Part shown: positions 1 to 10,321 of the stretch, piece by piece
Layout of the letters: every line of letters starts with the position of its first letter
How positions within the stretch are numbered: position 1 is the stretch's first letter
IMG/VR virus record: IMGVR_UViG_2802429251_000008
Span: 1 to 10,321 of that record
Source: a virus
Lineage: Duplodnaviria; Heunggongvirae; Uroviricota; Caudoviricetes
Length of the DNA stretch: 10,321 nucleotides
Direction: 5' to 3' (one strand)
Translations under genes and position numbers: made by a program
The notes under the pieces: model-generated
What the model was told of the DNA's origin: nothing
Database searches by the model: none
Seen by the model: only the letters and a program-made list of their open reading frames with translations

Positions 1-342
1 ATGATGAAAAAAAGTATTCTGGCGTTTCTGTTACTCACCAGTTCTGCAGCGGCGCTGGCGGCACCGCAGGTGATTACCGTCAGTCGTTTTGAAGTGGGTA
101 AAGACAAATGGGCATTTAACCGCGAAGAGGTAATGCTGACATGCCGACCGGGCCATGCGTTGTATGTTATTAATCCGAGTACCCTCGTGCAGTATCCTTT
201 GAACGATATCGCACAAAAGGAAGTCGCCAGCGGGAAGACCAATGCCCAGCCCATTTCGGTGATTCAGATTGATGATCCTAACAATCCAGGTGAAAAAATG
301 AGTCTGGCACCGTTTATAGAGCGAGCTGAAAAACTCTGTTAA
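1..342 (+). CDS. Small secreted/periplasmic protein of unknown function (host flanking gene)
   Basis: Complete ORF ATG..TAA; N-terminus [23 protein letters not shown] reads as a Sec signal peptide with an AxA cleavage site; followed by an intrinsic terminator. Family not recognised with certainty. Confidence 0.6.
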
Positions 343-371
343 TTACCTAAAATAGCCTTTTGATTTCCAAT

Positions 372-412
372 AAAAAACCGCCTCAGTTCTTTCACCAGAA
401 CAGGCGGTTTTT
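372..412. terminator. Bidirectional rho-independent terminator
   Basis: A-tract 372-377, stem CCGCCT(ca)GTTCT 378-390 pairing with AGAACAGGCGG 397-407, loop 391-396, T-tract 408-412. Can terminate both the upstream + gene and the leftward int transcript. Confidence 0.7.
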
Positions 413-568
413 AACATTTAAGCTGATGACCACCACGCTTTTTATTGACCATTTTGCACGCAAACTGGAAAACCTGGCGTCGTCATCTATTCTTAAAGGG
501 CAAGGCAACTAAGCCTGCATTAATGCCAACTTTTAGCGCACGGCTCTCTCCCAAGAGCCATTTCCCTG

Positions 569-602
569 GACCGAATACAGGAATCGTATTCGGTCTTTTT
601 TT
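569..602 (+). terminator. Intrinsic terminator-like hairpin plus T7 tract
   Basis: Perfect 10-bp inverted repeat GACCGAATAC (569-578) / GTATTCGGTC (586-595), 7-nt loop, then TTTTTTT 596-602. No ORF upstream on + strand; may end a small RNA or be part of the attachment region. Confidence 0.5.
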
Positions 603-636
603 AATTGTATTTAAAATCAATTAGTTGCAAACGCCT

Positions 637-656
637 CCCCGAAATTCCCCGAAATT
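637..656. repeat. Tandem direct repeat CCCCGAAATT x2 near int 3' end
   Basis: Exact 10-bp unit repeated twice, about 80 bp from the int stop; candidate integrase arm-type or accessory-factor binding sites in attL. Confidence 0.4.
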
Positions 657-733
657 TACTCGAATTTCTGTATTCCGGTCTTTTTTGGTTATATCACAAC
701 CAAAATGCATTTAACAATCCATTTACGTTAAAA

Positions 734-1810
734 TCAGAGCAGTAAGTACGTTTTTTCCCTCTCATCAAGATACATTTTTGTTGTCTTCTCCGATGTGTGG
801 CCAAGTAGACGCTGAGCAAATTCTTCTCCACATGTTTCTTTGTACAATCGTCCAGCCAGACTTCTGATCTCGTGAAAAGTTGGTGGGTTTTCACTGAACT
901 GGATACCTGTTAATTTTCTGGCTGCGACAAATTTTTTTGTCAGGCCGTCCGGGTGAATGCTGCCGTCAGGGCTGTTTTTTCTAATCCCGGCACTGATTAG
1001 ATAATCTCCCCGGCTTACCAGGCGGCACTGTTCAACTACTGTACCAAGCCGTAGACCAGCGACAGGAAGGCTGAGTGACAGGGGGATAGCAATCATCATT
1101 CCTGTCTTAATTTGCCTGATGTGGAGACGATCATCATAAATATCACTAAACCGCATATTCGTTATGTCTTCGCGACGTTGTCCTGTTACAAGGGCTAAAT
1201 CCATAGCTAATGGGAACCATGCCGGAAGTTGATCTGCTGCCTCCCTGATGCAGTTGTATGTCTTTAGTTTCAGTCGTTCTCTTGTAACTACTATTTTCGG
1301 TGCTCTTGTTGGTGTTACTGGATTTTGAGATATACGTCCTTCAACAATGGCCTCACGAAACATATCAGACAACACAGAACGCATTGATCCTGCCATTGTG
1401 TTTTTCCCTCCTTCAATCCACAAATCAAGAAACTCGGCAATATGGCGAGTGGTTATTTCTGTCAGTAAAATCTCTCCCAATTTTTCTTTTATTGTCTCCA
1501 GTTGATTTACCCGAATTTTATAAGTATTTCTGGACACTTTTCTCCTTATAAGAATCGTTTTGTAACGTTCAATCCAGTCTGCCATAGTAAATGAGTCGAG
1601 CCCTTTAAGCTTTTCAATTAAGGCAGCAGGAGAGTAGTTTTTGTATATATAATGATTTGCTTCAATTGCCTGCGCTACTGCATCTCTTCTTGAAATTTTA
1701 CCTAGTGTAAATTCTTCTTTCGTCAGAGGGTTGCGCCAGTAATATGCTTTGTCCCTCCTTCGATATGTTAAGTTTTTAGGCAAATTGGGATCGTATTTTT
1801 TCCGCTGCAT
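734..1810 (-). CDS. int: Lambda-family tyrosine integrase
   Basis: 358 aa; aligns by eye with lambda Int (PNLYxR..YY, TGQRxxD box, HExRSL..RLY box, LLGH...Y C-terminal catalytic Tyr). SD GGAGAAG 7 nt upstream of ATG at 1810. Confidence 0.9.
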
Positions 1811-2057
1811 GTTTTAACTTCTCCAGTAACGGACTGTCTCTCCCTTGTCGCCCATTAGGCTGATGGTGTGTTATATCGGTATCAACCTTATTTGGGTTGA
1901 TATAGAAAGCCTCCGGAACCACCCTGTAACTCCTCCCGTGTAGTTCAGGTGCAGGATAAATGTTTCCATTCCTTGCCCATCGTCTCAGCGTTGATATTGA
2001 TGGTGGGTTATCCGGATATCTGAGTTTTCCCCACGTTTTGAGTGTCACAAGATTCAT
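1776..2057 (-). CDS. xis: Excisionase-like DNA-binding protein
   Basis: Immediately upstream of and overlapping int by 35 nt (lambda xis/int arrangement); basic small protein. Start moved to the second in-frame ATG (2057), which has SD AGAGG at proper spacing. Confidence 0.65.
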   Translation of the reverse strand: MNLVTLKTWGKLRYPDNPPSISTLRRWARNGNIYPAPELHGRSYRVVPEAFYINPNKVDTDITHHQPNGRQGRDSPLLEKLKHAAEKIRSQFA

Positions 2058-2079
2058 TGCCATACCTCTTACGATATGA

Positions 2080-2108
2080 CCGCCAGTAAATATACAGAAT
2101 ACTGGCGG
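2080..2108. promoter_or_regulatory. 9-bp inverted repeat (CCGCCAGTA n11 TACTGGCGG) upstream of xis
   Basis: Perfect 9-bp arms read directly; no flanking T-tract, so more likely a protein-binding palindrome or RNA hairpin than a terminator. Confidence 0.3.
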
Positions 2109-2163
2109 ATGTGGTTGATTTTTAATAATCAGCTATGAAGTTCTAATTTGTATATAATGCAAC

Positions 2164-2352
2164 TCACGAGGACAGAAGTTTCTCGCAATTAAAATTTATC
2201 AGCTTTACTTTCTGCTCTCTGGAAACGCCTGCTTCTTTTTTCCCTGAGAGCATTTTTTCGCATTCTGATTTCGTTAATTTAGATTTTGAATATCTTGTCC
2301 AGTTAGTAGGAGTGCCACCTTCCTTTTCAATAGTGGCAGTAATTTTATACAT
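2164..2352 (-). CDS. Small hypothetical protein (Rac ydaC position)
   Basis: 62 aa from ATG at 2352 with strong SD GGAGGT 4 nt upstream; start overlaps the lar stop by 8 nt (translational coupling). Assignment by position only. Confidence 0.5.
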   Translation of the reverse strand: MYKITATIEKEGGTPTNWTRYSKSKLTKSECEKMLSGKKEAGVSREQKVKLINFNCEKLLSS

Positions 2353-2575
2353 GAACACCTCCATTATTATTTCCAGTAGTTCGTTTATTCCATCTTTCGA
2401 GTGCTTCTTTTTCACTTCCACTATAGCCGGTTCGGGATTCGCATCCGTTACACTTTGCGCGGTAATATCCTGAAATGGCTTTCACCGTTACTGATGGACA
2501 ACCACAAAATGGACATGGTTTGACTTTTGTGTATCGCACTGGTTTTTCTCCTGTGAGCTTTGTGGCTGCGCTCAT
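2345..2575 (-). CDS. ralR: Lar/RalR-family restriction-alleviation protein (Cys4 zinc-binding)
   Basis: Contains CPFCGC...CNGCES Cys4 motif typical of the Lar family; sits between exo and the small ORF as ralR does in Rac. Start chosen at ATG 2575 (SD GGGGAG 8 nt upstream), overlapping the exo stop as ATGA. Confidence 0.7.
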
Positions 2576-3252
2576 TTCCATTGCTCCCCAAATACAAAAC
2601 CAATTTCAGCCAGTGCCTCGTCCATTTTTTCGATGAATTCTGGCACCATCTCGTCAAAACTCGCCATGTACTTTTCATCCCGCTCAACCACGACATAATG
2701 CAGGCCTTCACGCTTCATACGCGGGTCATAGTTGGCAAAGTACCAGGCATCTTTTTGCGTCACCCACATGCTGTACTGCACCTGGGCCATGTAAGCCGAC
2801 TTTATGGCCTCGAAACCACCGAGCCGGAACTTCATGAAATCCCGGGAGGTGAACGGGCATTTCAGCTCAAGGCCGTTGCCGTCATTGCATAAACCATCGG
2901 GAGAGCAGGCGGTGCGCATAGTCTCGTCACGATAGATGATCGGGGATTCAGTAACATTCACGCCGGAAGTGAACTCAAACAGGGTTCTGGCGTCGTTCTC
3001 GTACTGTTTTCCCCAGGCCAGCGCCTTAGCGTTAACTTCCGGAGCCACACCGGTGCAAACCTCGGCAAGCAGGGTGTGGAAGTAGGACATTTTCATGTCA
3101 GGCCATTTCTTTCCGGAGCGGGGTTTTGCTATCACGTTGTGAACTTCTGAAGCTGTGATGACGCCGAGCCGTAATTTGTGCCACGCATCATCCCCCTGTA
3201 CGATAGCTCTCACGTCGATCCCGGTACGCTGCAGGATAATGTCCGGTGTCAT
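2572..3252 (-). CDS. exo: Lambda exonuclease (Red alpha)
   Basis: 226 aa, near-identical to lambda Exo from memory ([17 protein letters not shown]...GFVFGEQW); start overlaps the bet stop. Confidence 0.95.
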
Positions 3253-4034
3253 ATTGCCACCTTCTGCTCTGCGGCTTTCTGTTTCAGGAATCCAAGAGCT
3301 TTCACTGCTTCGGCCTGTTTCAGTTCTGACAATGCATGAATGTCGCGGCGAAATATCTGGGAACAGAGCGGCAATAAGTCGTCATCCCATGTTTTATCCA
3401 GGGCGATCAGCAGAGTGTTAATCTCCTGCATGGTTTCATCGTTAACCGGAGTGATGTCGCGTTCCGGCTGATGTTCTGCAGTGCATGCGGTATTTTCGAC
3501 AATGCGCTCGGCTTCATCCTTGTCATAGATACCAGCAAATCCGAAGGCCAGACGGGCACACTGAATCATGGCTTTATGCCGTAACATCCGTTTGGGATGC
3601 GACTGCCATGGTCCGATGATTTCTTTGCCTTCTCGGGTTTTGAATGGTTCGCGACGGCACTCATCCATCCACTCGGTAACGCAGATCGGATGATTACGGT
3701 CCTTGCGGTAAATCCGGCATGTACATGATTCATTGTCCTGCTCAAAGTCCATGCCATCAAACTGCTGGTTTTCATTTATGATGCGGGACCAGCCATCAAC
3801 GCCCACCACCGGAACAATGCCGTTCTGCTTATCAGGGAAGGCGTAAATCTCTTTCGTCCACGGATTAAGTCCGTACTGGTTGGCGACGATCAGCAGCGCG
3901 ATGAATTGCGCATCGCTGGCATTACCTTTAAATGCCGTCTGGCGAAGAGTGGCGATCAGTTCCTGCGGGTCGACAGAATCCATGCCGACGCGTTCAGCCA
4001 GCTTCCCGGCCAGTGTTGCAAGTGCTGTACTCAT
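3249..4034 (-). CDS. bet: Lambda Bet single-strand annealing protein (Red beta)
   Basis: 261 aa, near-identical to lambda Bet from memory ([27 protein letters not shown]...). Confidence 0.95.
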
Positions 4035-4039
4035 TCGTT

Positions 4040-4339
4040 TTATACCTCTGAATCAATATCAACCTGGTGACGAGCAATGGTTTCAACCATGTACCGGATG
4101 TGCTCCGCCACACGTTCCTGAAATTCAACATCGTCATCAAATGCGCGACTGATTGCCTGTTTGCTGGCACCGTGGCGTTGCAAATGGTCGATGCAGAGCG
4201 ATTCAAACAGATGCTGGGGCAGACCTTTTTCCAGGTCGTCCGCCAGCGCCGTTTCTTTTTCTTCGCGAACGATTTGCTGGTAGTGGCGTGACCATGCCTG
4301 CTCTTCAATGCGATCAAAAATTGGGCATGTACTCATCAT
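4040..4339 (-). CDS. gam: Gam, RecBCD inhibitor (short GamS-length form)
   Basis: 99 aa; from residue 13 onward matches lambda Gam C-terminal 86 residues (SRHYQQ...HQVDIDSEV). The first 12-15 residues differ from lambda and the upstream frame is occupied by the ORF672 3' end. Confidence 0.9.
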
Positions 4340-6332
4340 CCGTCACCCCAAAATTTTCAAGTTTGTTTGCAATCATCATTGCAATACCCGGAATTAATGG
4401 CGCTGAGGCTATACCCGCAGGATTTGCACATAAACCGTAAACCGCTGCAATCACCACTTGTCTTTTCCAGTCGAGTTTTTCTAATGATGAAGCTGCTGCT
4501 TCGCCAGTTTCATCACTGCAATCGCGATGCGGATCGCTGCCATCGTTCTCCTTGTGCGGATGTTCAGCACCTTCCATTTCCTCCAGACCTTTTTCCTGAT
4601 ATTCATTCTGATTTTCTTCATTAAAGGTTTTCTGATACGTTGCGTCGCCCATCACCGCGCCGCAGTCAGGACAGTTGCCGCCGCCAGCCTGACCGCAGGC
4701 GATGCAAACTTTCTCCGTTTCCTGTTGTTGCACTACTGGCTCAGGCTGTTTCGTTTCTGGCTCGTTTTGTTGCGTATTTGGGTCGTTCTGTTCCGCTTTT
4801 TGGTCGTTATGTTCCGTTTCTGGCTGATTCTGGTACACAGAGTCGCGGGTCTGGATCCCCTTAACCCATTTCGGATCATTCGGGTCGCTAATCCCTTCAA
4901 CAAATTCTCCGCGAGAGGCAGCCAGTAATTTGTCTGCATCGACAGGATTTTTGGGCGGAATGTTTTTCCGGGCTTCATGGAGTTCTGCCCGCAGTTTCTG
5001 ATATTTCGCATCAACAGAATTTACCTGTGACTGAGCATCCAGCGACTGCGTGTCCTGATGATGTTCAGTTGCATCCGGTTCCACTGTTTCAGCCGTTGCC
5101 TGTTCATCTGCCATTGCGCAAGATGGTTGCAGTTTTTCTTCATCATCCTGTTTTTCTTCTTCTGTTACACGCTGCGGCATCGGGGCAGAGGAACGACCGC
5201 AGGCAATATCCACGATTTCTGGATCAGGGTTGGCATGATCAGTTTCAGTCAGTACTTTGTTTAGATATTCAGTGACGTGTGCGGGGATAACCTCGATCCC
5301 AATTGGTGCTTCTTTTACGGACGCAACCACGATGGCGCGGGAATAATCCAGCCCGCCAGGCATGGTGATGAATTTGTCGCGGAAAACAGAAAAGGGCGGT
5401 TTATTTTCAGCGATAATTTCCTCGACACGTTTAGCGTGTGCCGGATGAAGGTTATAAATGTCCACGTCCATTGAACGAGCCAGTACGCCAGTGGCTACGT
5501 CGCGCGCCAGTGACGTCAGATCGTGAACGAAACCTTCGCCGCGATCGGTGAGGTTCCCGCCGCCAGCATTAGCGCCGGAAGCCGTGCGCGTGATGCGTGA
5601 AACACGATTTCCTTTCATCCACTCTTTTGTCAGCAGACCACGATCGGTGTAGTCTGCGTCCAGGTATGCTTCGAAAAAAGCAGTCATCAGCCCCAGGCTT
5701 GAATTGCCTGGATTAGGGAAAACTCTGTCAGTATCACGCACCAGTTTGTGGAGATCGCGAATTTCCAGCGGGTCGAGCAGGCTGGTTTTGTGGGAAACAG
5801 CCAGGGCAGTAACAGCTGGTAGTTCTTCAGCTCGTGCAATGTGTAATGCCTGGAGTTCGTCGCGTGAAACGTGCGTTACCGGTTTTTCGCTGCCGTGTTG
5901 AGCAAGCCAGCGAATGGGCAGCTCCTGACCGGAAATCGGGAGTAGCATATTCTCCTCAATCTCCGTCATGTCTTCGCCATTAACATTGGTATTGTCAGTG
6001 CTGGCTGGTTTGTCCTGCGCAGAGGATGAGGGCGCGATAAATACCATTGTGATGCCATCTTCCCCGCCTTTTTCGTAACGGTTGCAGAATTCCGTATCAA
6101 ATACGCCCTCTGGTGGAAGGTCATCAACAACGGGCAAATTGACGCGAACAGGTTTTTTAAAGTCATCTTCATCGTAGCCAGCATCGTCAATCGCAACAGC
6201 ACCACGGGATATGGCAATGGATAATTTTTTCGCTTCAGCCCAGTAGAAACCGCCTTTAATACCGAGACGTTTTCTTACTTTGTCATTTTTTGCTTCGTAA
6301 TACAGTGGGTAAACTTGTTTATCGGTGCTCAT
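4314..6332 (-). CDS. Large uncharacterised early-operon protein; possible RecE N-terminal-region relative without a nuclease domain
   Basis: 672 aa uninterrupted; SD GAGG upstream of ATG 6332; stop overlaps gam start by about 26 nt. Globular N-terminal region, acidic low-complexity middle, five heptapeptide repeats, CxxC-x9-CxxC zinc ribbon, and a Gly/Ala/Pro-rich hydrophobic C-terminal tail. Occupies the recE slot of Rac. Confidence 0.75.
4736..4850. repeat. Degenerate 21-bp tandem repeats inside ORF672
   Basis: Units such as GGTCGTTCTGTTCCGCTTTTT / GGTCGTTATGTTCCGTTTCTGG on + strand; encode [35 protein letters not shown] on the minus-strand frame. Confidence 0.6.
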
Positions 6333-6401
6333 TGTTTTTTAACCTCAACTCAGATTAAAATTACTGCGAGTGATGAATAAATGTCCTAGGTTCTTCACTC
6401 A

Positions 6402-6432
6402 GGCCTGCACAGTGTGCAGGCTTTCTTTTTTT
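6402..6432 (+). terminator. Plus-strand-oriented hairpin plus T-tract inside the leftward operon
   Basis: 9-bp arms GCCTGCACA / TGTGCAGGC (6402-6420) then TTTCTTTTTTT (6422-6432), abutting the racC-like stop. Oriented against the surrounding genes. Confidence 0.4.
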
Positions 6433-6707
6433 CAGATTTCACCTTTTAATTTCATTGCAATCAGAGTTGCCAGAAATTCGGCTTTTTTTTCTGCGGGCAG
6501 ATTCTTTCCTATGTGCACCAGACACATTTCTTTAACACCATCGTTAAGTGTTTTAACGTTGCCTGATGGACCGTCGATATCAACCACAGTGAATGGGGTT
6601 TCTTTATTTTCTGTCTTAATCACGTAGCCAATACGCTTTCCTTCCAGGGTAACTTCGTGAACAATGTCATCAGTAGTAACAACAGTGGCTTCATAACTGG
6701 TAATCAT
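6432..6707 (-). CDS. racC: RacC-like small protein
   Basis: 91 aa from ATG 6707 (SD AAGGAG 6 nt upstream); size and position match Rac racC. Symbol assigned by size and synteny, not sequence recall. Confidence 0.55.
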   Translation of the reverse strand: MITSYEATVVTTDDIVHEVTLEGKRIGYVIKTENKETPFTVVDIDGPSGNVKTLNDGVKEMCLVHIGKNLPAEKKAEFLATLIAMKLKGEI

Positions 6708-6781
6708 GTTTTTCTCCTTAATTAAGGTTGATCGAATCCCTGCCATTGCTGGCATAAATTCAGTTTCGGATAGTCAGTTAA

Positions 6782-6952
6782 TTAAAGTTCGTGTGCCATC
6801 TGGTCTTTTTCGGCACAACTTTCACTACAATATTTTTTCATTTCCGTCGTTGGGATAACTCCACGCATGAAATGAAGAGGTCTTTTAATACTTTTGCTTT
6901 CTTCAATTTCTTTATTGCAAAGGTGGTAAGCACATTTTATTTTCTTAGTCAT
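6782..6952 (-). CDS. ydaE: YdaE-like small Cys-rich zinc-binding protein
   Basis: 56 aa, below the 60-aa ORF-track cutoff and found by manual translation: [56 protein letters not shown] (CxxxxC...CxxxC). Start overlaps upstream stop as TGATG. Size and order match Rac ydaE. Confidence 0.55.
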   Translation of the reverse strand: MTKKIKCAYHLCNKEIEESKSIKRPLHFMRGVIPTTEMKKYCSESCAEKDQMAHEL

Positions 6953-7173
6953 CACCATGACTCCGCCTTTACAGGTAAACCATCACGACCGAGGAAGACT
7001 TTAATCATGCAGTCAGAAATGCATGTTTTTGTAGTCAGGTTACGAATATAAAGTTTTCGCTTTTTAATATTGTTTGCCGAGGCGATATATGTCCGGCCTT
7101 CATGAAGAACATAATCACCAGGAGTCACACACTGACGTGGTATTTCATCAGTTCCGAAGTGATGTGCAATCAT
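6952..7173 (-). CDS. kilR: KilR-like small protein (candidate FtsZ/cell-division inhibitor)
   Basis: 73 aa from ATG 7173 (SD GGAG 6 nt upstream; the track start at 7185 overlaps the SD). Size and order match Rac kilR. Function inferred from Rac. Confidence 0.55.
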
Positions 7174-7248
7174 AATTATCTCCATTTTTACAAATGAACT
7201 TTGTTGATGCGGTGCCTGGCGCCTCCAGGTGACTGCAACCAGTTAACA

Positions 7249-7277
7249 ATTACAGTCGGCTTTCCCACCCAAACCAA
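7249..7277 (-). promoter_or_regulatory. Candidate sigma70 promoter for kilR-ydaE-racC
   Basis: Minus-strand -35 TTGGTT (7277..7272), 17-bp spacer, -10 TGTAAT (7254..7249); the leader would contain the CCTGG-n5-CCAGG hairpin. Confidence 0.25.
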
Positions 7278-7346
7278 TAAGGACTAACATGACTTTTAAC
7301 TGTGCCGCGTGCGCTTAGCCGCATTCACCGCATCACAAAATTCACT

Positions 7347-7392
7347 TTAAAAAGGGGCGGCAGGGCAGCCACGGAGTAGAACTGATGCCGCC
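7347..7392 (-). terminator. Candidate leftward intrinsic terminator
   Basis: On minus strand: stem GGCGGCA (7392..7386) / TGCCGCC (7362..7356), 23-nt loop, then CC + TTTTT (7353..7349). Long loop lowers confidence. Confidence 0.3.
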
Positions 7393-7516
7393 AAAGACTA
7401 CACATAGCAATGTCGTTATTTACAACCGGAGGCGCACTCCCACCATTTAAATTTAACAGACAAGACCGACTCTTTATGAATACCGGAAATGCACCTTCGT
7501 GTTGTGCGCCTGTCTT

Positions 7517-7544
7517 TTTACCACTTCAGGCTCGGTGGTATACT
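7517..7544 (+). promoter_or_regulatory. Extended -10 promoter for the + strand 64-aa ORF
   Basis: TGgTATACT (7536-7544) with -35-like TTTACC (7517-7522) at 16-bp spacing; ATG at 7579 preceded by TAAGG. Confidence 0.4.
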
Positions 7545-7578
7545 GGAGTTCTCACACAACCAGTAATAAGGTATTCCG

Positions 7579-7773
7579 ATGGATAATAAAGACAAAGCCT
7601 GGCTACTTGCTTTAGCTTTCAGCATCAGATCGCAGCGAGAAACAACTCATCAAGAATTTTTCTCGGAAATCGAGAATGCTGAGAATGAGTTTTTGTCACT
7701 ACTCAATGAACGTGATGCTAAAAAAAGCTCCGATTCACTTAAGGCTTGGGCGAAACTAGGCTCTTCAAAATAA
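7579..7773 (+). CDS. Small hypothetical protein (64 aa), opposite in orientation to neighbours
   Basis: ATG start with SD-like TAAGG, own promoter, two in-frame stops immediately upstream; 3' end overlaps the convergent 72-aa ORF by 35 nt. No recognisable family. Confidence 0.4.
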   Translation: MDNKDKAWLLALAFSIRSQRETTHQEFFSEIENAENEFLSLLNERDAKKSSDSLKAWAKLGSSK

Positions 7774-7957
7774 TTGCTTCTGTAGCGGCATGAACAACTG
7801 TTTTTGCCGCCTCTTCAACTTCCTTGTCTGGACGACCAGCCTTTACTTTTTCTGCAATGACCTCCAGCACAGTTGGAAGAACCTTGCTAATAAGCATGGC
7901 TGCCACATCTTTGCTGCACAATTGACCGTTAATAACAACCAGATCTTCACCAACCAT
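7739..7957 (-). CDS. Small hypothetical protein (72 aa), first gene after the leftward promoter
   Basis: ATG 7957 with SD AAGGGG 7 nt upstream; downstream of a consensus-like promoter. Not Arg-rich, so not an N-type antiterminator. Confidence 0.45.
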   Translation of the reverse strand: MVGEDLVVINGQLCSKDVAAMLISKVLPTVLEVIAEKVKAGRPDKEVEEAAKTVVHAATEAIILKSLVSPKP

Positions 7958-8022
7958 CTTTTTTCCCCTTAACGCCGGGTGGCGGAACTAAAACCTACAG
8001 CGCCGTGCTGTTCTTGATAGAA

Positions 8023-8051
8023 ATATTAGTAACACGGATATTTTAAGTCAA
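8023..8051 (-). promoter_or_regulatory. Leftward early promoter (pL-equivalent candidate)
   Basis: Minus-strand -35 TTGACT (8051..8046), 17-bp spacer, -10 TAATAT (8028..8023); sits between the racR terminator and the 72-aa ORF in an AT-rich region. Confidence 0.45.
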
Positions 8052-8147
8052 TAGTATGGCGTATGATATTTTTGATTTAGTAACTATGTAAATGTTTTTT
8101 CAAGGGAAAAATATTAGTTATACAGCTGATTTGCAGAAGTTATGGCA

Positions 8148-8177
8148 CAAAAAAACCGACTAAGACGTCGGTTTTTT
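8148..8177. terminator. Bidirectional intrinsic terminator downstream of racR
   Basis: AAAAAAA (8148-8154), stem ACCGAC / GTCGGT with 4-6 nt loop, then TTTTTTT (8171-8177). Confidence 0.7.
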
Positions 8178-8204
8178 TGTTGTGGATGGGGTAGTGAGTA
8201 GTGG

Positions 8205-8666
8205 CTACTGGTTACGTTTCTTTAGTGCCAGCATGTTCTCGAAGGCTTCCTCGTAGAGCTTGTTTAGTCCACGTAGCTGGTTAAGGAGTTTGGCTTTTTC
8301 TGACGCAGGTAGAATCTCGAAGAGGTTAAGTAACTCAGCCTGTTCTTCATTGACCAGCCTCCATCCTTTGCCTGAAAAGCTATCATCATAAGTATCTGAT
8401 GATCTTACATAATTCATTAAGTCTTTAAGGTCTTCTCGAATGTCCTCTGGTTTTACCTTTAACAGAGCCGCAAATTTTAGCGCAGCGTCGGTATTTACCG
8501 GTATCTTGCCGTTCAGATACTGGCTAACGGTGCCTTGAGATTCGAATCCCAACAACTCAGCCGCCAGCTCTTGAGTCAGCTTCAGCTCTTTTTTTCTTGC
8601 ATTCCATGCGGCTTTTAAATTCTTGCTCGCTTCTGGAGTTGCAATCACTTCGCGTGTTTTTTTCAT
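8205..8666 (-). CDS. racR: XRE-family HTH prophage repressor (RacR-like)
   Basis: 153 aa; N-terminal HTH (LTQELAAELLGFESQGTVSQYLNG); divergent from ydaS-ydaT exactly as racR is in Rac. Confidence 0.8.
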   Translation of the reverse strand: MKKTREVIATPEASKNLKAAWNARKKELKLTQELAAELLGFESQGTVSQYLNGKIPVNTDAALKFAALLKVKPEDIREDLKDLMNYVRSSDTYDDSFSGKGWRLVNEEQAELLNLFEILPASEKAKLLNQLRGLNKLYEEAFENMLALKKRNQ

Positions 8667-8690
8667 ACATAGAGTTTATTTGTTTTACCA

Positions 8691-8767
8691 ATATTATCAA
8701 AGATAGTCTGACTGTTGATCTTTAAAATTAGTGGGGCTAATATTTGATCGAGGCATAACGTAGAAGG
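8691..8767. promoter_or_regulatory. Divergent promoter/operator region between racR and ydaS
   Basis: Plus-strand -35 TTGATC (8715-8720), 17-bp spacer, -10 TAATAT (8738-8743) for ydaS; minus-strand -10-like TAATAT (8696..8691) for racR; palindromic elements AAAGAT-n14-ATCTTT (8699-8724) and AGTCtGACT (8705-8713). Confidence 0.45.
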
Positions 8768-8773
8768 TTGGCT

Positions 8774-9049
8774 ATGAACTTAAGAGACTATTTAAAAGAG
8801 AAACATATCACCCAGTTACAGTTTGGGAAGCTAACGGGTTTATCTCAGGTGCATGTAAGTCGAGTGCTGGGGGGCTATGAAAGATTCAGCCCTGAAAAAG
8901 CATTACGTGTTGCTGAAGTAACGAATTTCGAGGTTACACCTCATGAACTCCGGCCTGATATCTACCCGAATCCGACCGATGGTTTACCTGTTGGATGTAA
9001 GGCTAACACACAAAATGCACAGGAGTTGATTCATGAAAATCAGGCATGA
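8774..9049 (+). CDS. ydaS: YdaS-like Cro/HTH protein (toxic when derepressed in Rac)
   Basis: 91 aa from ATG 8774 (SD GAAGG; the track start at 8768 is TTG); HTH GLSQVHVSRVLGG; overlaps ydaT start by 17 nt. Confidence 0.75.
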   Translation: MNLRDYLKEKHITQLQFGKLTGLSQVHVSRVLGGYERFSPEKALRVAEVTNFEVTPHELRPDIYPNPTDGLPVGCKANTQNAQELIHENQA

Positions 9050-9455
9050 GCACATCGAATCAGTGTTGTTAGCCCTAGCCGCTGAAAAAGGGCAGGCGTG
9101 GGTCGCTAACGCAATTACTGAAGAATATCTGCGCCAGGGGGGCGGCGAATTGCCCCTGGTACCAGGCAAGGACTGGAATAATCAGCAGAACATCTATCAC
9201 CGTTGGTTAAAAGGTGAAACGGAAGCGCAAAGGGAAAAAATTCAGACACTGATCCCTGCGGTTCTGGCAATTCTTCCGCGCGAGCTGCGTCACCGACTCT
9301 GCATCTTCGATACCCTGGAACGCCGTGCATTACTGGCGGCGCAGGAAGCGTTGAGTACGGCAATTGATGCGCATGATGATGCAGTCCAGGCCGTTTACCG
9401 GAAAGCACATTTCAGCGGTGGTGGGTCGCCCGGTGATTCTGTCGTAGTGCATTGA
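9033..9455 (+). CDS. ydaT: YdaT-like protein
   Basis: 140 aa; matches Rac YdaT in length and in recalled sequence (MKI.HEHIESVL.ALAAEKGQAWVANAITEEYLRQGGGELPLVPGKDWNNQQNIYHRWLKGE...); SD AGGAG 7 nt upstream. Confidence 0.8.
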   Translation: MKIRHEHIESVLLALAAEKGQAWVANAITEEYLRQGGGELPLVPGKDWNNQQNIYHRWLKGETEAQREKIQTLIPAVLAILPRELRHRLCIFDTLERRALLAAQEALSTAIDAHDDAVQAVYRKAHFSGGGSPGDSVVVH

Positions 9456-9500
9456 TTGAAATTAATCGTGCCGGATTGTTTTGTTCGGTATCAGTTAAAT

Positions 9501-9519
9501 GTAACGCTGCGAGCGTTAC
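9501..9519. repeat. 19-bp perfect palindrome GTAACGCT-GCG-AGCGTTAC just upstream of the O-position gene SD
   Basis: Read directly; copy 1 of a repeated palindrome family. Confidence 0.7.
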
Positions 9520-9532
9520 AAGGTGAAAACAA

Positions 9533-10321
9533 ATGGCTTCAAACTGGATAAAGCTCGAGGTTATTACGCCGGATAAGCCGGAAATATTCAGGCTTGCTGA
9601 GATTCTGAATATTGATCCAGATGCCGCATTAGGGAAGGTTATTCGCTTCTGGGCATGGGCGGATCAACAAATGATAGACGGTAATGCAGATTGTAACGCT
9701 CGCGGCGTTACAAAAAGTGCAATAGATCGCATCACTTTTATGGCTGGTTTTGCTGATGCGTTAATTCAGGTTGGATGGCTGGTCGAAAATGACGTTGGGC
9801 TTTCTCTACCTAACTTTGAACGTCATAACGGAAAAAGCTCTAAAAAACGGGCGGTTACAAACGAGCGAGTTACAAAAATACGCGAACTGAAACGAAAAGG
9901 TAACGCTACCAGCGTTACACAAACGGATCAAAAAGCGTTACCAGAGGAAGAGGAAGAGGAAGATATAAATACTGATCTCCCCCTAAATCCCCCTCGCCAA
10001 AAACGAGCGTCTAAAAAATTCGAGCCGGAGGCTATTGAGCTGCCCGATTGGTTGCCGGAAACACTCTGGCATGAGTGGGTCCGGTTCAGGCAGGCATTGC
10101 GAAAACCGATTCGAACGGAGCAGGGCGCTAACGGGGCGATACGGGAACTGGAAAAATTCCGCCAGCAGGGTTTTACACCTGAGCAGGTGATTCGACACAG
10201 CATCGCCAATGAATACCAGGGCCTGTTCGCGCCGAAAGGTGTTCGGCCTGAGACGTTGCTCCGACAGGTTAACACCGTCTCGTTGCCGGACAGTGCGATC
10301 CCGCCTGGCTTCAGGGGGTAA
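9533..10321 (+). CDS. Putative replication-initiator-like protein (lambda O position; Rac ydaU slot) with internal palindromic repeats and acidic linker
   Basis: 262 aa complete ORF ending at the last base of the window; follows ydaS-ydaT; contains EEEEEED linker right after the DNA repeats. Replication role inferred by synteny only. Confidence 0.6.
   Translation: MASNWIKLEVITPDKPEIFRLAEILNIDPDAALGKVIRFWAWADQQMIDGNADCNARGVTKSAIDRITFMAGFADALIQVGWLVENDVGLSLPNFERHNGKSSKKRAVTNERVTKIRELKRKGNATSVTQTDQKALPEEEEEEDINTDLPLNPPRQKRASKKFEPEAIELPDWLPETLWHEWVRFRQALRKPIRTEQGANGAIRELEKFRQQGFTPEQVIRHSIANEYQGLFAPKGVRPETLLRQVNTVSLPDSAIPPGFRG
9693..9711. repeat. Palindrome copy 2 (GTAACGCT-CGC-GGCGTTAC)
   Basis: 18 of 19 positions match copy 1; lies inside the coding sequence. 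Confidence 0.65.
9900..9918. repeat. Palindrome copy 3 (GTAACGCT-ACC-AGCGTTAC)
   Basis: Perfect 8-bp arms; flanked by degenerate copies (GTTACAAA x2 at about 9853-9876, AGCGTTAC at 9934-9941) and followed by GAGGAAGAGGAAGAGGAAGA. Confidence 0.65.

Follow-up and report, generated by a model that had tools for sequence, protein, structure and literature searches.

The stretch analyzed here comprises positions 1 to 10,321 of IMG/VR virus record IMGVR_UViG_2802429251_000008; we refer to this whole stretch of 10,321 nucleotides (nt) as the window. Its gene map is based on six-frame open reading frames (ORFs), scans with Pfam, PHROG, and NCBIfam profiles, and Rfam (Table 1). From left to right, the window holds a chromosomal flank with yebY and two small RNA (sRNA) genes, genes for an integrase and an excisionase, the rcbA, RalA, and ralR genes, the lambda-type recombination (Red) genes exo, bet, and gam, a long reading frame (ORF672) that begins like the exonuclease RecE, the genes racC, ydaE, and kilR, and an immunity region followed by a ydaU-like gene. 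No transfer RNA (tRNA) gene was found in the window. We conclude that the window very probably holds the early-left arm, on the integrase side, of a lambdoid Escherichia coli prophage of the Rac family. The prophage has integrated beside yebY, at the sdsR/ryeA locus (3' end), and has lambda-type exo-bet-gam in place of recT and the nuclease end of recE. Its class is that of mosaic lambdoid/Rac-like prophages with exchangeable recombination modules.

Table 1. Features of the window. aa, amino acids; nt identities refer to nucleotide alignments.
Feature	Positions	Strand	Basis and remarks
yebY	1-342	+	Chromosomal flank; 113-aa ORF; YebY in sibling annotations; 96.7% nt to K-12
SraC/RyeA sRNA	462-606	-	Rfam RF00101 179 bits, RF00111 118 bits for the sRNA pair
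SdsR/RyeB sRNA	503-602	+	Antisense to SraC/RyeA; Rfam
Tyrosine integrase	734-1810	-	Pfam Arm-DNA-bind_1, Phage_int_M, Phage_integrase; lambda-family architecture
Excisionase	1776-2063	-	Pfam Exc PF07825; 29% aa to lambda Xis
rcbA-like DUF1187 gene	2164-2352	-	PF06688; 98% aa to K-12 RcbA
RalA antitoxin sRNA	2168-2346	+	Opposite the rcbA-like gene; Rfam RalA 223.8 bits
ralR toxin/restriction-alleviation gene	2345-2539	-	GTG start; PF14354; 93.8% aa to K-12 RalR
Left breakpoint, Rac-like backbone/lambda-type cassette	2551-2560	.	Within the 32-nt exo stop-ralR start spacer
exo (lambda exonuclease, Red-alpha)	2572-3252	-	226 aa; 96.0% aa to lambda Exo; PF09588
bet (Red-beta annealase)	3249-4034	-	261 aa; 96.5% aa to lambda Bet; PF03837
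gam (short form; RecBCD inhibitor)	4040-4336	-	98 aa; PF06064 189.9 bits, profile positions 4-98 of 98
ORF672 (RecE-N residues 1-613 plus a non-RecE tail of ~58 aa)	4314-6332	-	PF06630 (E = 8e-38) only
Segment between lambda and RecE homology	4316-4490	-	175 bp; unmatched by lambda, by K-12 Rac, and by the RecET sibling
racC homologue	6432-6707	-	91 aa; 94.5% aa to K-12 RacC
ydaE homologue (zinc-binding)	6782-6952	-	56 aa; 73% aa to K-12 YdaE; PF04181
kilR (FtsZ inhibitor)	6952-7173	-	73 aa; 95.9% aa to K-12 KilR; NCBIfam NF008465
DicF-family sRNA	7355-7406	-	Rfam RF00039 60.9 bits (gathering score 48); K-12 kilS at the homologous place
orf64	7579-7773	+	PHROG match, function unassigned
orf72	7739-7957	-	PHROG match, function unassigned
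Helix-turn-helix repressor, racR position	8205-8666	-	PF01381; weak DicA-subfamily match (NCBIfam)
ydaS-like	8768-9049	+	PF15943/PF06254 (with ydaT); 32% over 50 aa to K-12 YdaS
ydaT	9033-9455	+	PF15943/PF06254 (with ydaS-like); 93.6% aa to K-12 YdaT
ydaU-like replication-initiation gene	9533-10321	+	Complete 262-aa ORF to the last window base; phrog_2509 positions 1-277 of 277

We compared the window with positions 27000 to 40000 of lambda and with the Rac prophage of K-12 and its flanks by blastn. Lambda matched the window in one block, 2561-4315, which corresponds to lambda 31338-33091 at 93.5% nt identity; the only second match was a 35-bp element at 7505-7539. K-12 Rac matched at 2114-2550 (94%), 4493-5994 (89%), 6325-7539 (89%), 9027-9453 (92%), and 9960-10321 (86%). 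Summed from the blast blocks, approximately 17% of the bases are assigned to lambda, 39% to K-12 Rac (at 86 to 94% nt identity), 6% to the chromosome, and 39% to neither phage. The lambda-type genes lie within a 1.94-kb cassette (2551-4490) that has Rac-like DNA to its left and right; int, xis, rcbA/RalA, and ralR either form part of the Rac-like backbone or are assignable to neither phage.

The original prediction was that a lambda left arm (int, xis, and Red) had been joined to Rac-type kil and immunity modules, read here as a two-block model with one junction near gam/ORF672. Exo, Bet, and the core of Gam are indeed lambda-like (Gam shares 80.6% of its amino acids with lambda Gam 41-138), the trio of 91-, 56-, and 73-aa proteins is that of Rac, YdaT is also Rac-like, and the integrase has an arm-binding architecture of the lambda type, all of which would suit such a two-part structure. 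The alignments refute it, leaving it next to no chance of being correct. The lambda int and xis genes gave no nucleotide match, similarity to lambda being confined to 2561-4315 (apart from the 35-bp element), and Int is only 38.6% identical to lambda Int at the amino acid level, with Xis at 29%. To the left of exo, the rcbA/RalA/ralR region is 94 to 98% Rac-like, and sibling prophages with RecET run collinear with the whole yebY-to-ralR stretch. The lambda-type DNA is an insert within Rac-like DNA, not an arm, and the window is not collinear with any single well-known phage. The assignment of racR/ydaS/ydaT to Rac, also part of the prediction, holds for gene order and size and for YdaT, but not for the repressor, which shows no significant similarity to RacR, or for YdaS, of which only 50 aa align.

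A megablast search of 5,426 complete E. coli genomes, with the full window as query, turned up near relatives of two kinds, both at the yebY site. The Red type, represented by E. coli M8, carries exo-bet-gam and a gene annotated as a "RecE family exodeoxyribonuclease," and is 98.3% identical to the window over 1-7530 and approximately 100% identical over 1801-6800. The RecET type, represented by NZ_CP169399, matches the window at 1-2550 (97.8%) and 4491-10321 (96.9%), and between these segments it has a RecT-family gene and a recE encoding 1049 aa. Because the flanks of the cassette, left and right, are collinear with such siblings, the window belongs to a Rac-family prophage rather than to a lambda arm fused to a Rac arm. 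The same collinearity bears out the predicted natural exchange of RecET for Red in one slot, although the exchange is only partial: recE codons 1 to 613 are retained and have a new conserved tail.

The early-left and immunity gene order and orientation of the window are those of K-12 Rac (intR...rcbA-ralR-recT-recE-racC-ydaE-kilR...racR-ydaS-ydaT-ydaU), and rcbA, RalA, ralR, the 5' part of recE (recE-N), racC, ydaE, kilR, the DicF-like kilS, and ydaT are shared with it at 73 to 98% aa or 86 to 94% nt identity. Within this set, the early-left order rcbA-ralR-[recombinase]-racC-ydaE-kilR is conserved at 73 to 98% aa and 89 to 94% nt identity. The differences from K-12 Rac are equally clear. Rac lies at ttcA, whereas the window prophage lies at sdsR/yebY and has an unrelated integrase; recT is absent and recE extends only to codon 613, with Red in place of recT and the recE nuclease domain; two small ORFs occupy the position of sieB/ydaF/ydaG; and the repressor and ydaS are other alleles. 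Neither the IntR/ttcA site nor the RacR/YdaS immunity type of Rac is present. Moreover, Rac is a 23-kb remnant, whereas the M8 sibling looks complete: the 49.7 kb covered, which stop short of the far prophage end, include genes for lysis, terminase, head, and tail, and the prophage spans at least 48 kb. One gene in the morphogenesis region of the M8 sibling carries an anti-CBASS Acb1-family annotation (L011, 23884-25320), and two tRNA genes (Gly and Thr) lie near its lysis cassette.

The cassette itself has the make-up of a Red module: a full-length Exo of the lambda Exo/YqaJ family, an adjacent Bet (bet adjoins exo upstream with a 4-nt gene overlap, as in lambda), and Gam upstream. The three genes keep the lambda order and lengths at 93.5% nt identity and, with those lengths and full Pfam coverage, are intact. 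The cassette differs from lambda in its surroundings, having neither orf60a/DUF1317 downstream nor kil and cIII upstream, and in codons 1 to 7 of gam, which are changed where the gene overlaps the end of ORF672.

Alignment to lambda and to Rac-like DNA located the cassette boundaries, the left one to approximately 10 nt. On the coding strand, exo ends ...GEQWK-TGA and, after the 32-nt spacer, ralR begins GTG-CGA-TAC...; sibling (Rac-like) homology reaches 2550 and includes the ralR Shine-Dalgarno sequence, and lambda-like homology starts at approximately 2561. On the right, lambda homology stops at 4315 (gam codon 8), by the ORF672 stop codon (4314-4316), and RecE homology starts at 4491 (codon 613 of ORF672), which places the right breakpoint inside the reading frame. 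The prediction had put junctions at the 5' end of gam and around ORF672. The first is confirmed in position, but only the first 7 to 8 residues of Gam are unlike lambda, not 12 to 15; the second exists but lies within ORF672, at approximately nt 4491, the frame itself being the RecE N-terminal region. The left junction occurs in 16 of the 5,426 complete genomes and the right junction in 17, and L012, a relative at greater distance, has an identical left-junction sequence. An assembly artefact was ruled out by this recurrence in 16 to 17 complete genomes and in phage records.

ORF672 aligns with RecE up to ...CSDETGE, which is residue 613 in ORF672 and residue 587 in K-12 RecE. Its identity is 80.6% to K-12 RecE 40-587 and 99 to 100% to other full-length RecE alleles. 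PMC11611040 assigns the PD-(D/E)XK nuclease domain of K-12 RecE (PF12684) to residues 564-866 and describes the N-terminal region as having an unknown function. By alignment with K-12 RecE, the break falls in the lead-in to the nuclease core, and a Pfam scan of ORF672 gave no match to PF12684. The NCBIfam exonuclease VIII model covers ORF672 with positions 1-600 of 877, at a score of 1196.8 against a cutoff of 1269. After residue 613, ORF672 continues into a conserved, hydrophobic, two-helix tail with the motif WK..IAA..GLCANPA..IP..A.MIAN; the Kyte-Doolittle 19-residue maximum is 1.62, borderline for a membrane anchor. Neither tblastn against 50,697 phage records nor a word-indexed search of 5.8 billion proteins revealed an independent source gene for the tail; in those searches it occurred only as a fusion to RecE-N or in fragments of such proteins.

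A protein without its nuclease domain, scoring below the exonuclease VIII cutoff and represented in databases by several fragments labelled "partial," might be a recE pseudogene that was truncated by the Red insertion and reads through into junk. We consider this very unlikely. The ORF is intact at 657 to 690 aa in many clusters and in inducible Shiga toxin (Stx) phages. Relative to two Stx-phage homologues, the ratio of nonsynonymous to synonymous substitution (dN/dS, Nei-Gojobori method) is 0.06 to 0.12 for the tail core, approximately 0.06 to 0.09 for residues 1-100, and approximately 0.12 for residues 215-400, with dS at approximately 0.9 to 2, so that the N-terminal and core domains lie at approximately 0.1; the acidic linkers are far freer by dN/dS than the folded parts. 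These ratios indicate that the tail and the RecE-N domains alike are under purifying selection, and given the value for the tail core, ORF672 is therefore not a decaying remnant. In addition, three diverged lineages all retain the tail motif, whereas the acidic linker that precedes it and the residues after ENFG vary.

The tail always lies directly upstream of gam, which we observed in E. coli prophages of the window type, in four Stx-converting phages, and in a third, more diverged lineage (P0128/L012) that is also at the yebY site and has the gene order of the window. The four Stx phages (75/02 Stx, POCJ13, phiSTEC1589-Stx1c, and PhiR5_2) share with the window exo-bet-gam, RecE-N with its tail, a racC-like gene, (ydaE), and kilR. 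Two of them were aligned, 75/02 Stx and phiSTEC1589-Stx1c; both follow window positions 2578-5656 collinearly across the junction at 83% nt identity, and the Stx-phage tails are 70 to 76% identical in amino acids to that of the window. Unlike the window prophage, these phages have their own integrase, no ralR/rcbA downstream of exo, lambda-like cI/cII/N immunity, and a tail that ends after ENFG in another frame. Because the Stx phages are collinear at only 83% nt identity, the tail/gam/bet/exo block predates its acquisition by this prophage. The tail/gam junction is not new, being common to these phages already. Past ENFG, a 1-nt indel or frame change relative to the Stx phages makes the window tail 6 residues longer and gives it a 23-nt overlap with gam, and Gam codons 1 to 7 change along with this frame difference (4314-4345). 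In the L012 relative, the tail ORF and gam are a few bases apart and do not overlap.

The RecE-N part of ORF672 also occurs with the ordinary nuclease end. A full-length RecE of 892 aa (P0013) was reported as 100% identical over the first 91% of ORF672 (residues 1-613), within which three substitutions can be seen by eye, and another protein (P0024), present on 365 contigs, is 99% identical to the same residues. The tail-type database proteins are at most 94% identical to ORF672 overall. The same terminal RecE-N allele is found with both C-terminal types (P0013 versus ORF672 and P0010), a pattern in keeping with repeated homologous exchange in which the crossovers fell within recE-N.

We asked how widely RecE-N is distributed. 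With HMMER, 1.84 billion cluster representatives were searched exhaustively, which yielded only 232 matches at an expectation value (E) of 0.001 or below, with lengths of approximately 450 to 1089 aa. Among ten diverse representatives, five carried a PD-(D/E)XK domain, three carried an Rv2179c-like 3'-5' exonuclease domain, and two carried neither. In an AlphaFold2 model of ORF672 built with a 78-sequence alignment, the predicted local distance difference test (pLDDT) score was mostly above 90 for residues 1-400 and 56 to 77 for the two-helix tail, and the acidic linkers were disordered. RecE-N thus looks like a folded orphan module. As a rule it is joined to a nuclease, and the tail variant is the exception. 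Other arrangements were seen as well. One protein (P0078; L009/L010, 6001-8457) has a RecE-N approximately 96% identical to that of ORF672 fused to an Rv2179c-like domain (PF16473); its gene lies immediately upstream of xis and int in a Rac-like prophage that occupies another site and lacks an annealase gene. A 775-aa protein (P0138) joins RecE-N to a C-terminal region without a Pfam match, whose PHROG matches carry the label "exonuclease" and nothing more (phrog_2489 and phrog_7838) and which by eye looks more annealase-like than nuclease-like. In RefSeq, GenBank phage records, and PHROGs, nuclease-less RecE-N proteins go under the names "exodeoxyribonuclease VIII," "exonuclease VII," or "RecE family exodeoxyribonuclease." This is a systematic annotation problem, in which exodeoxyribonuclease names are attached to proteins without the catalytic domain.

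Most members of this prophage family hold recT and a full-length recE in the slot between ralR and racC, and we infer that a Red cassette replaced recT and the nuclease part of recE there. The cassette would have brought exo, bet, and gam, together with the 175 bp that gave recE codons 1 to 613 their conserved tail. The tail-gam-bet-exo block probably arose once, was joined to ralR by a single illegitimate event, and may now move among Rac-like prophages by homologous recombination, with recE-N and ralR serving as the two flanks. The classical laboratory counterpart of such a swap is lambda-rev, in which lambda took recET from Rac, and phage-encoded recombinases drive homeologous lambda-Rac exchange (PMC3945230). 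Both cases involve Red and RecET trading places in one genomic slot between lambda-like and Rac-like genomes. The present case differs in that it is natural, runs in the opposite direction (Red for RecET), and keeps the 5' two-thirds of recE.

The order of events could also have been the reverse, with Red and the tail being older and recT and the recE nuclease domain arriving later in most members. One RecE-N allele is shared by both C-terminal types, so in principle exchange clearly runs in either direction, and the tail/gam junction is old, as its 83% nt identity to the Stx phages attests. We nonetheless regard this order as unlikely. RecET is far commoner at the site: the integrase together with the sdsR junction is found in 228 of the 5,426 complete genomes, versus 16 to 17 with Red junctions. 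The recT-ralR spacer of the RecET siblings is like that of K-12 Rac, and the exo-ralR spacer is unique to the Red group. ralR is missing from the Stx phages that carry the tail block, and a fused nuclease is the usual state among diverse RecE-N homologues (8 of the 10 representatives).

Several points weigh against replacement of RecET by a Red cassette as we describe it, or against what we read into ORF672. The direction from RecET to Red was deduced from how often each form occurs and from the resemblance of the siblings' recT-ralR spacer to that of K-12, rather than from a rooted tree. Short shared sequences had been proposed as something to look for at the junctions; at the left one, comparison of the 10-nt junction with lambda and the sibling showed no convincing microhomology, the resemblances being weak (approximately 11 nt to the 5' end of lambda orf60a and approximately 15 nt to the ralR ribosome-binding region of the sibling). 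Lambda shares no more than 93.5% nt identity with its block of the cassette. RecE-N has no structural neighbor in PDB or BFVD, and the co-occurrence of the tail with Red may be mere linkage. Finally, the window covers only one arm of its own prophage.

The chromosome/prophage junction lies at approximately 603/604; K-12 homology stops at 603, the 3' end of sdsR. This boundary falls at the ryeB 3' end, in the ryeA/ryeB (sraC/sdsR) integration hot spot by yebY, and not at the lambda attB between gal and bio. The integrase is 41.5% identical at the amino acid level to HK022 Int, somewhat more than to lambda Int, and showed no significant similarity to Rac IntR (E = 1.5); likewise, the excisionase showed no significant similarity to Rac XisR. 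The Salmonella phage PhiW104 inserts at ryeA/ryeB according to Balbontin et al. 2008, as summarised in PMC7380047, and going by that summary the two elements resemble one another in having the prophage junction at the ryeB (sdsR) 3' end, inside ryeA, and differ in host and phage. The K-12 ryeA annotation begins 38 nt past the sdsR 3' end. Because the K-12 ryeA start therefore lies 38 nt past the junction, the RyeA promoter and 5' end are phage DNA in the window, and this phage-supplied 5' end may shift the RyeA/SdsR balance, as the summary reports for PhiW104 in Salmonella. A record labelled "Actinobacillus phage vB_Apl-pPE4" (PP818812.1) encodes an integrase 97.5% identical in amino acids to that of the window, together with RecET, and matches the window between 1811 and 9460 in four pieces that cover approximately 30% of it at 94.5% nt identity. 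Its host label looks doubtful, the genome being E. coli-like.

The start of ralR, next to the left breakpoint, is GTG in the window versus ATG in the RecET siblings and K-12. An alternative in-frame ATG at 2575 overlaps the exo stop codon (ATGA) and would give a 76-aa, exo-coupled RalR, the form chosen by gene callers in the L012 relative.

To the right of ORF672, the DicF-family sRNA has a terminator-like hairpin at 7372-7357 and lies transcriptionally upstream of kilR. Because it sits at the position of kilS, Rac-type prophages have a DicF relative beside their FtsZ inhibitor gene. The 35-bp element at 7505-7539 contains a hairpin and is common to lambda, where it lies approximately 54 nt upstream of sieB, and K-12 Rac; homology to both stops at this element (7539/7540). 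The two small ORFs beyond it, orf64 and orf72, match phrog_22868 and phrog_23495, are convergent and partly overlapping, and occupy the sieB/ydaF/ydaG slot of K-12; they gave no Pfam match and have no similarity to SieB, YdaF, or YdaG. Both are present in one sibling (L002) and not in M8.

The repressor at the racR position did not align significantly with K-12 RacR. Since neither it nor ydaS is the K-12 Rac allele, the immunity specificity likely differs from that of K-12 Rac, going by the predicted proteins. A search for operators between the racR-like and ydaS-like genes yielded one imperfect 17-nt inverted repeat only, which is uninformative. The ydaU-like protein is 63% identical to K-12 YdaU over its C-terminal 179 aa, and the sibling ydaU-like gene (789 nt) matches the window through its last base. 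Four stretches of the window are non-K-12 alleles of Rac-like DNA and mark further mosaic boundaries: 5995-6324 (the 5' 47 codons of ORF672 and the region upstream), 7540-7952 (the sieB/ydaF/ydaG slot), 7992-9026 (the repressor and ydaS), and 9454-9959 (the 5' part of the ydaU-like gene). The first three vary between close siblings.

As a mosaic, the window is a clean but textbook case, with near-isogenic siblings that have RecET or Red in one slot. The arrangement is already public and is annotated in several RefSeq E. coli genomes and Stx phages; in the literature, we found no paper on the Red-for-RecET variant or on the nuclease-less RecE-N protein. The main specialist interest lies in ORF672, a natural separation of RecE-N from its nuclease, beside a different recombinase system. 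Upon induction, a leftward early transcript would carry KilR, ORF672, Gam, Bet, Exo, RalR, Xis, and Int, and the prophage would then rely on Red (5'-3' resection, annealing, and RecBCD inhibition) rather than on RecET, with ORF672 perhaps supplying the accessory role of RecE-N, free of a covalently attached nuclease. It is conceivable, though doubtful, that RecE-N is an autonomous accessory module, kept whatever the exonuclease/annealase pair, and that the tail docks ORF672 on Exo, Bet, or Gam in lieu of the covalent link. If true, co-expression of ORF672 with Red might boost linear-linear recombination, as full-length RecE does for RecET. ORF672 thereby offers a handle on the role of RecE-N and on a possible enhancement of Red recombineering.

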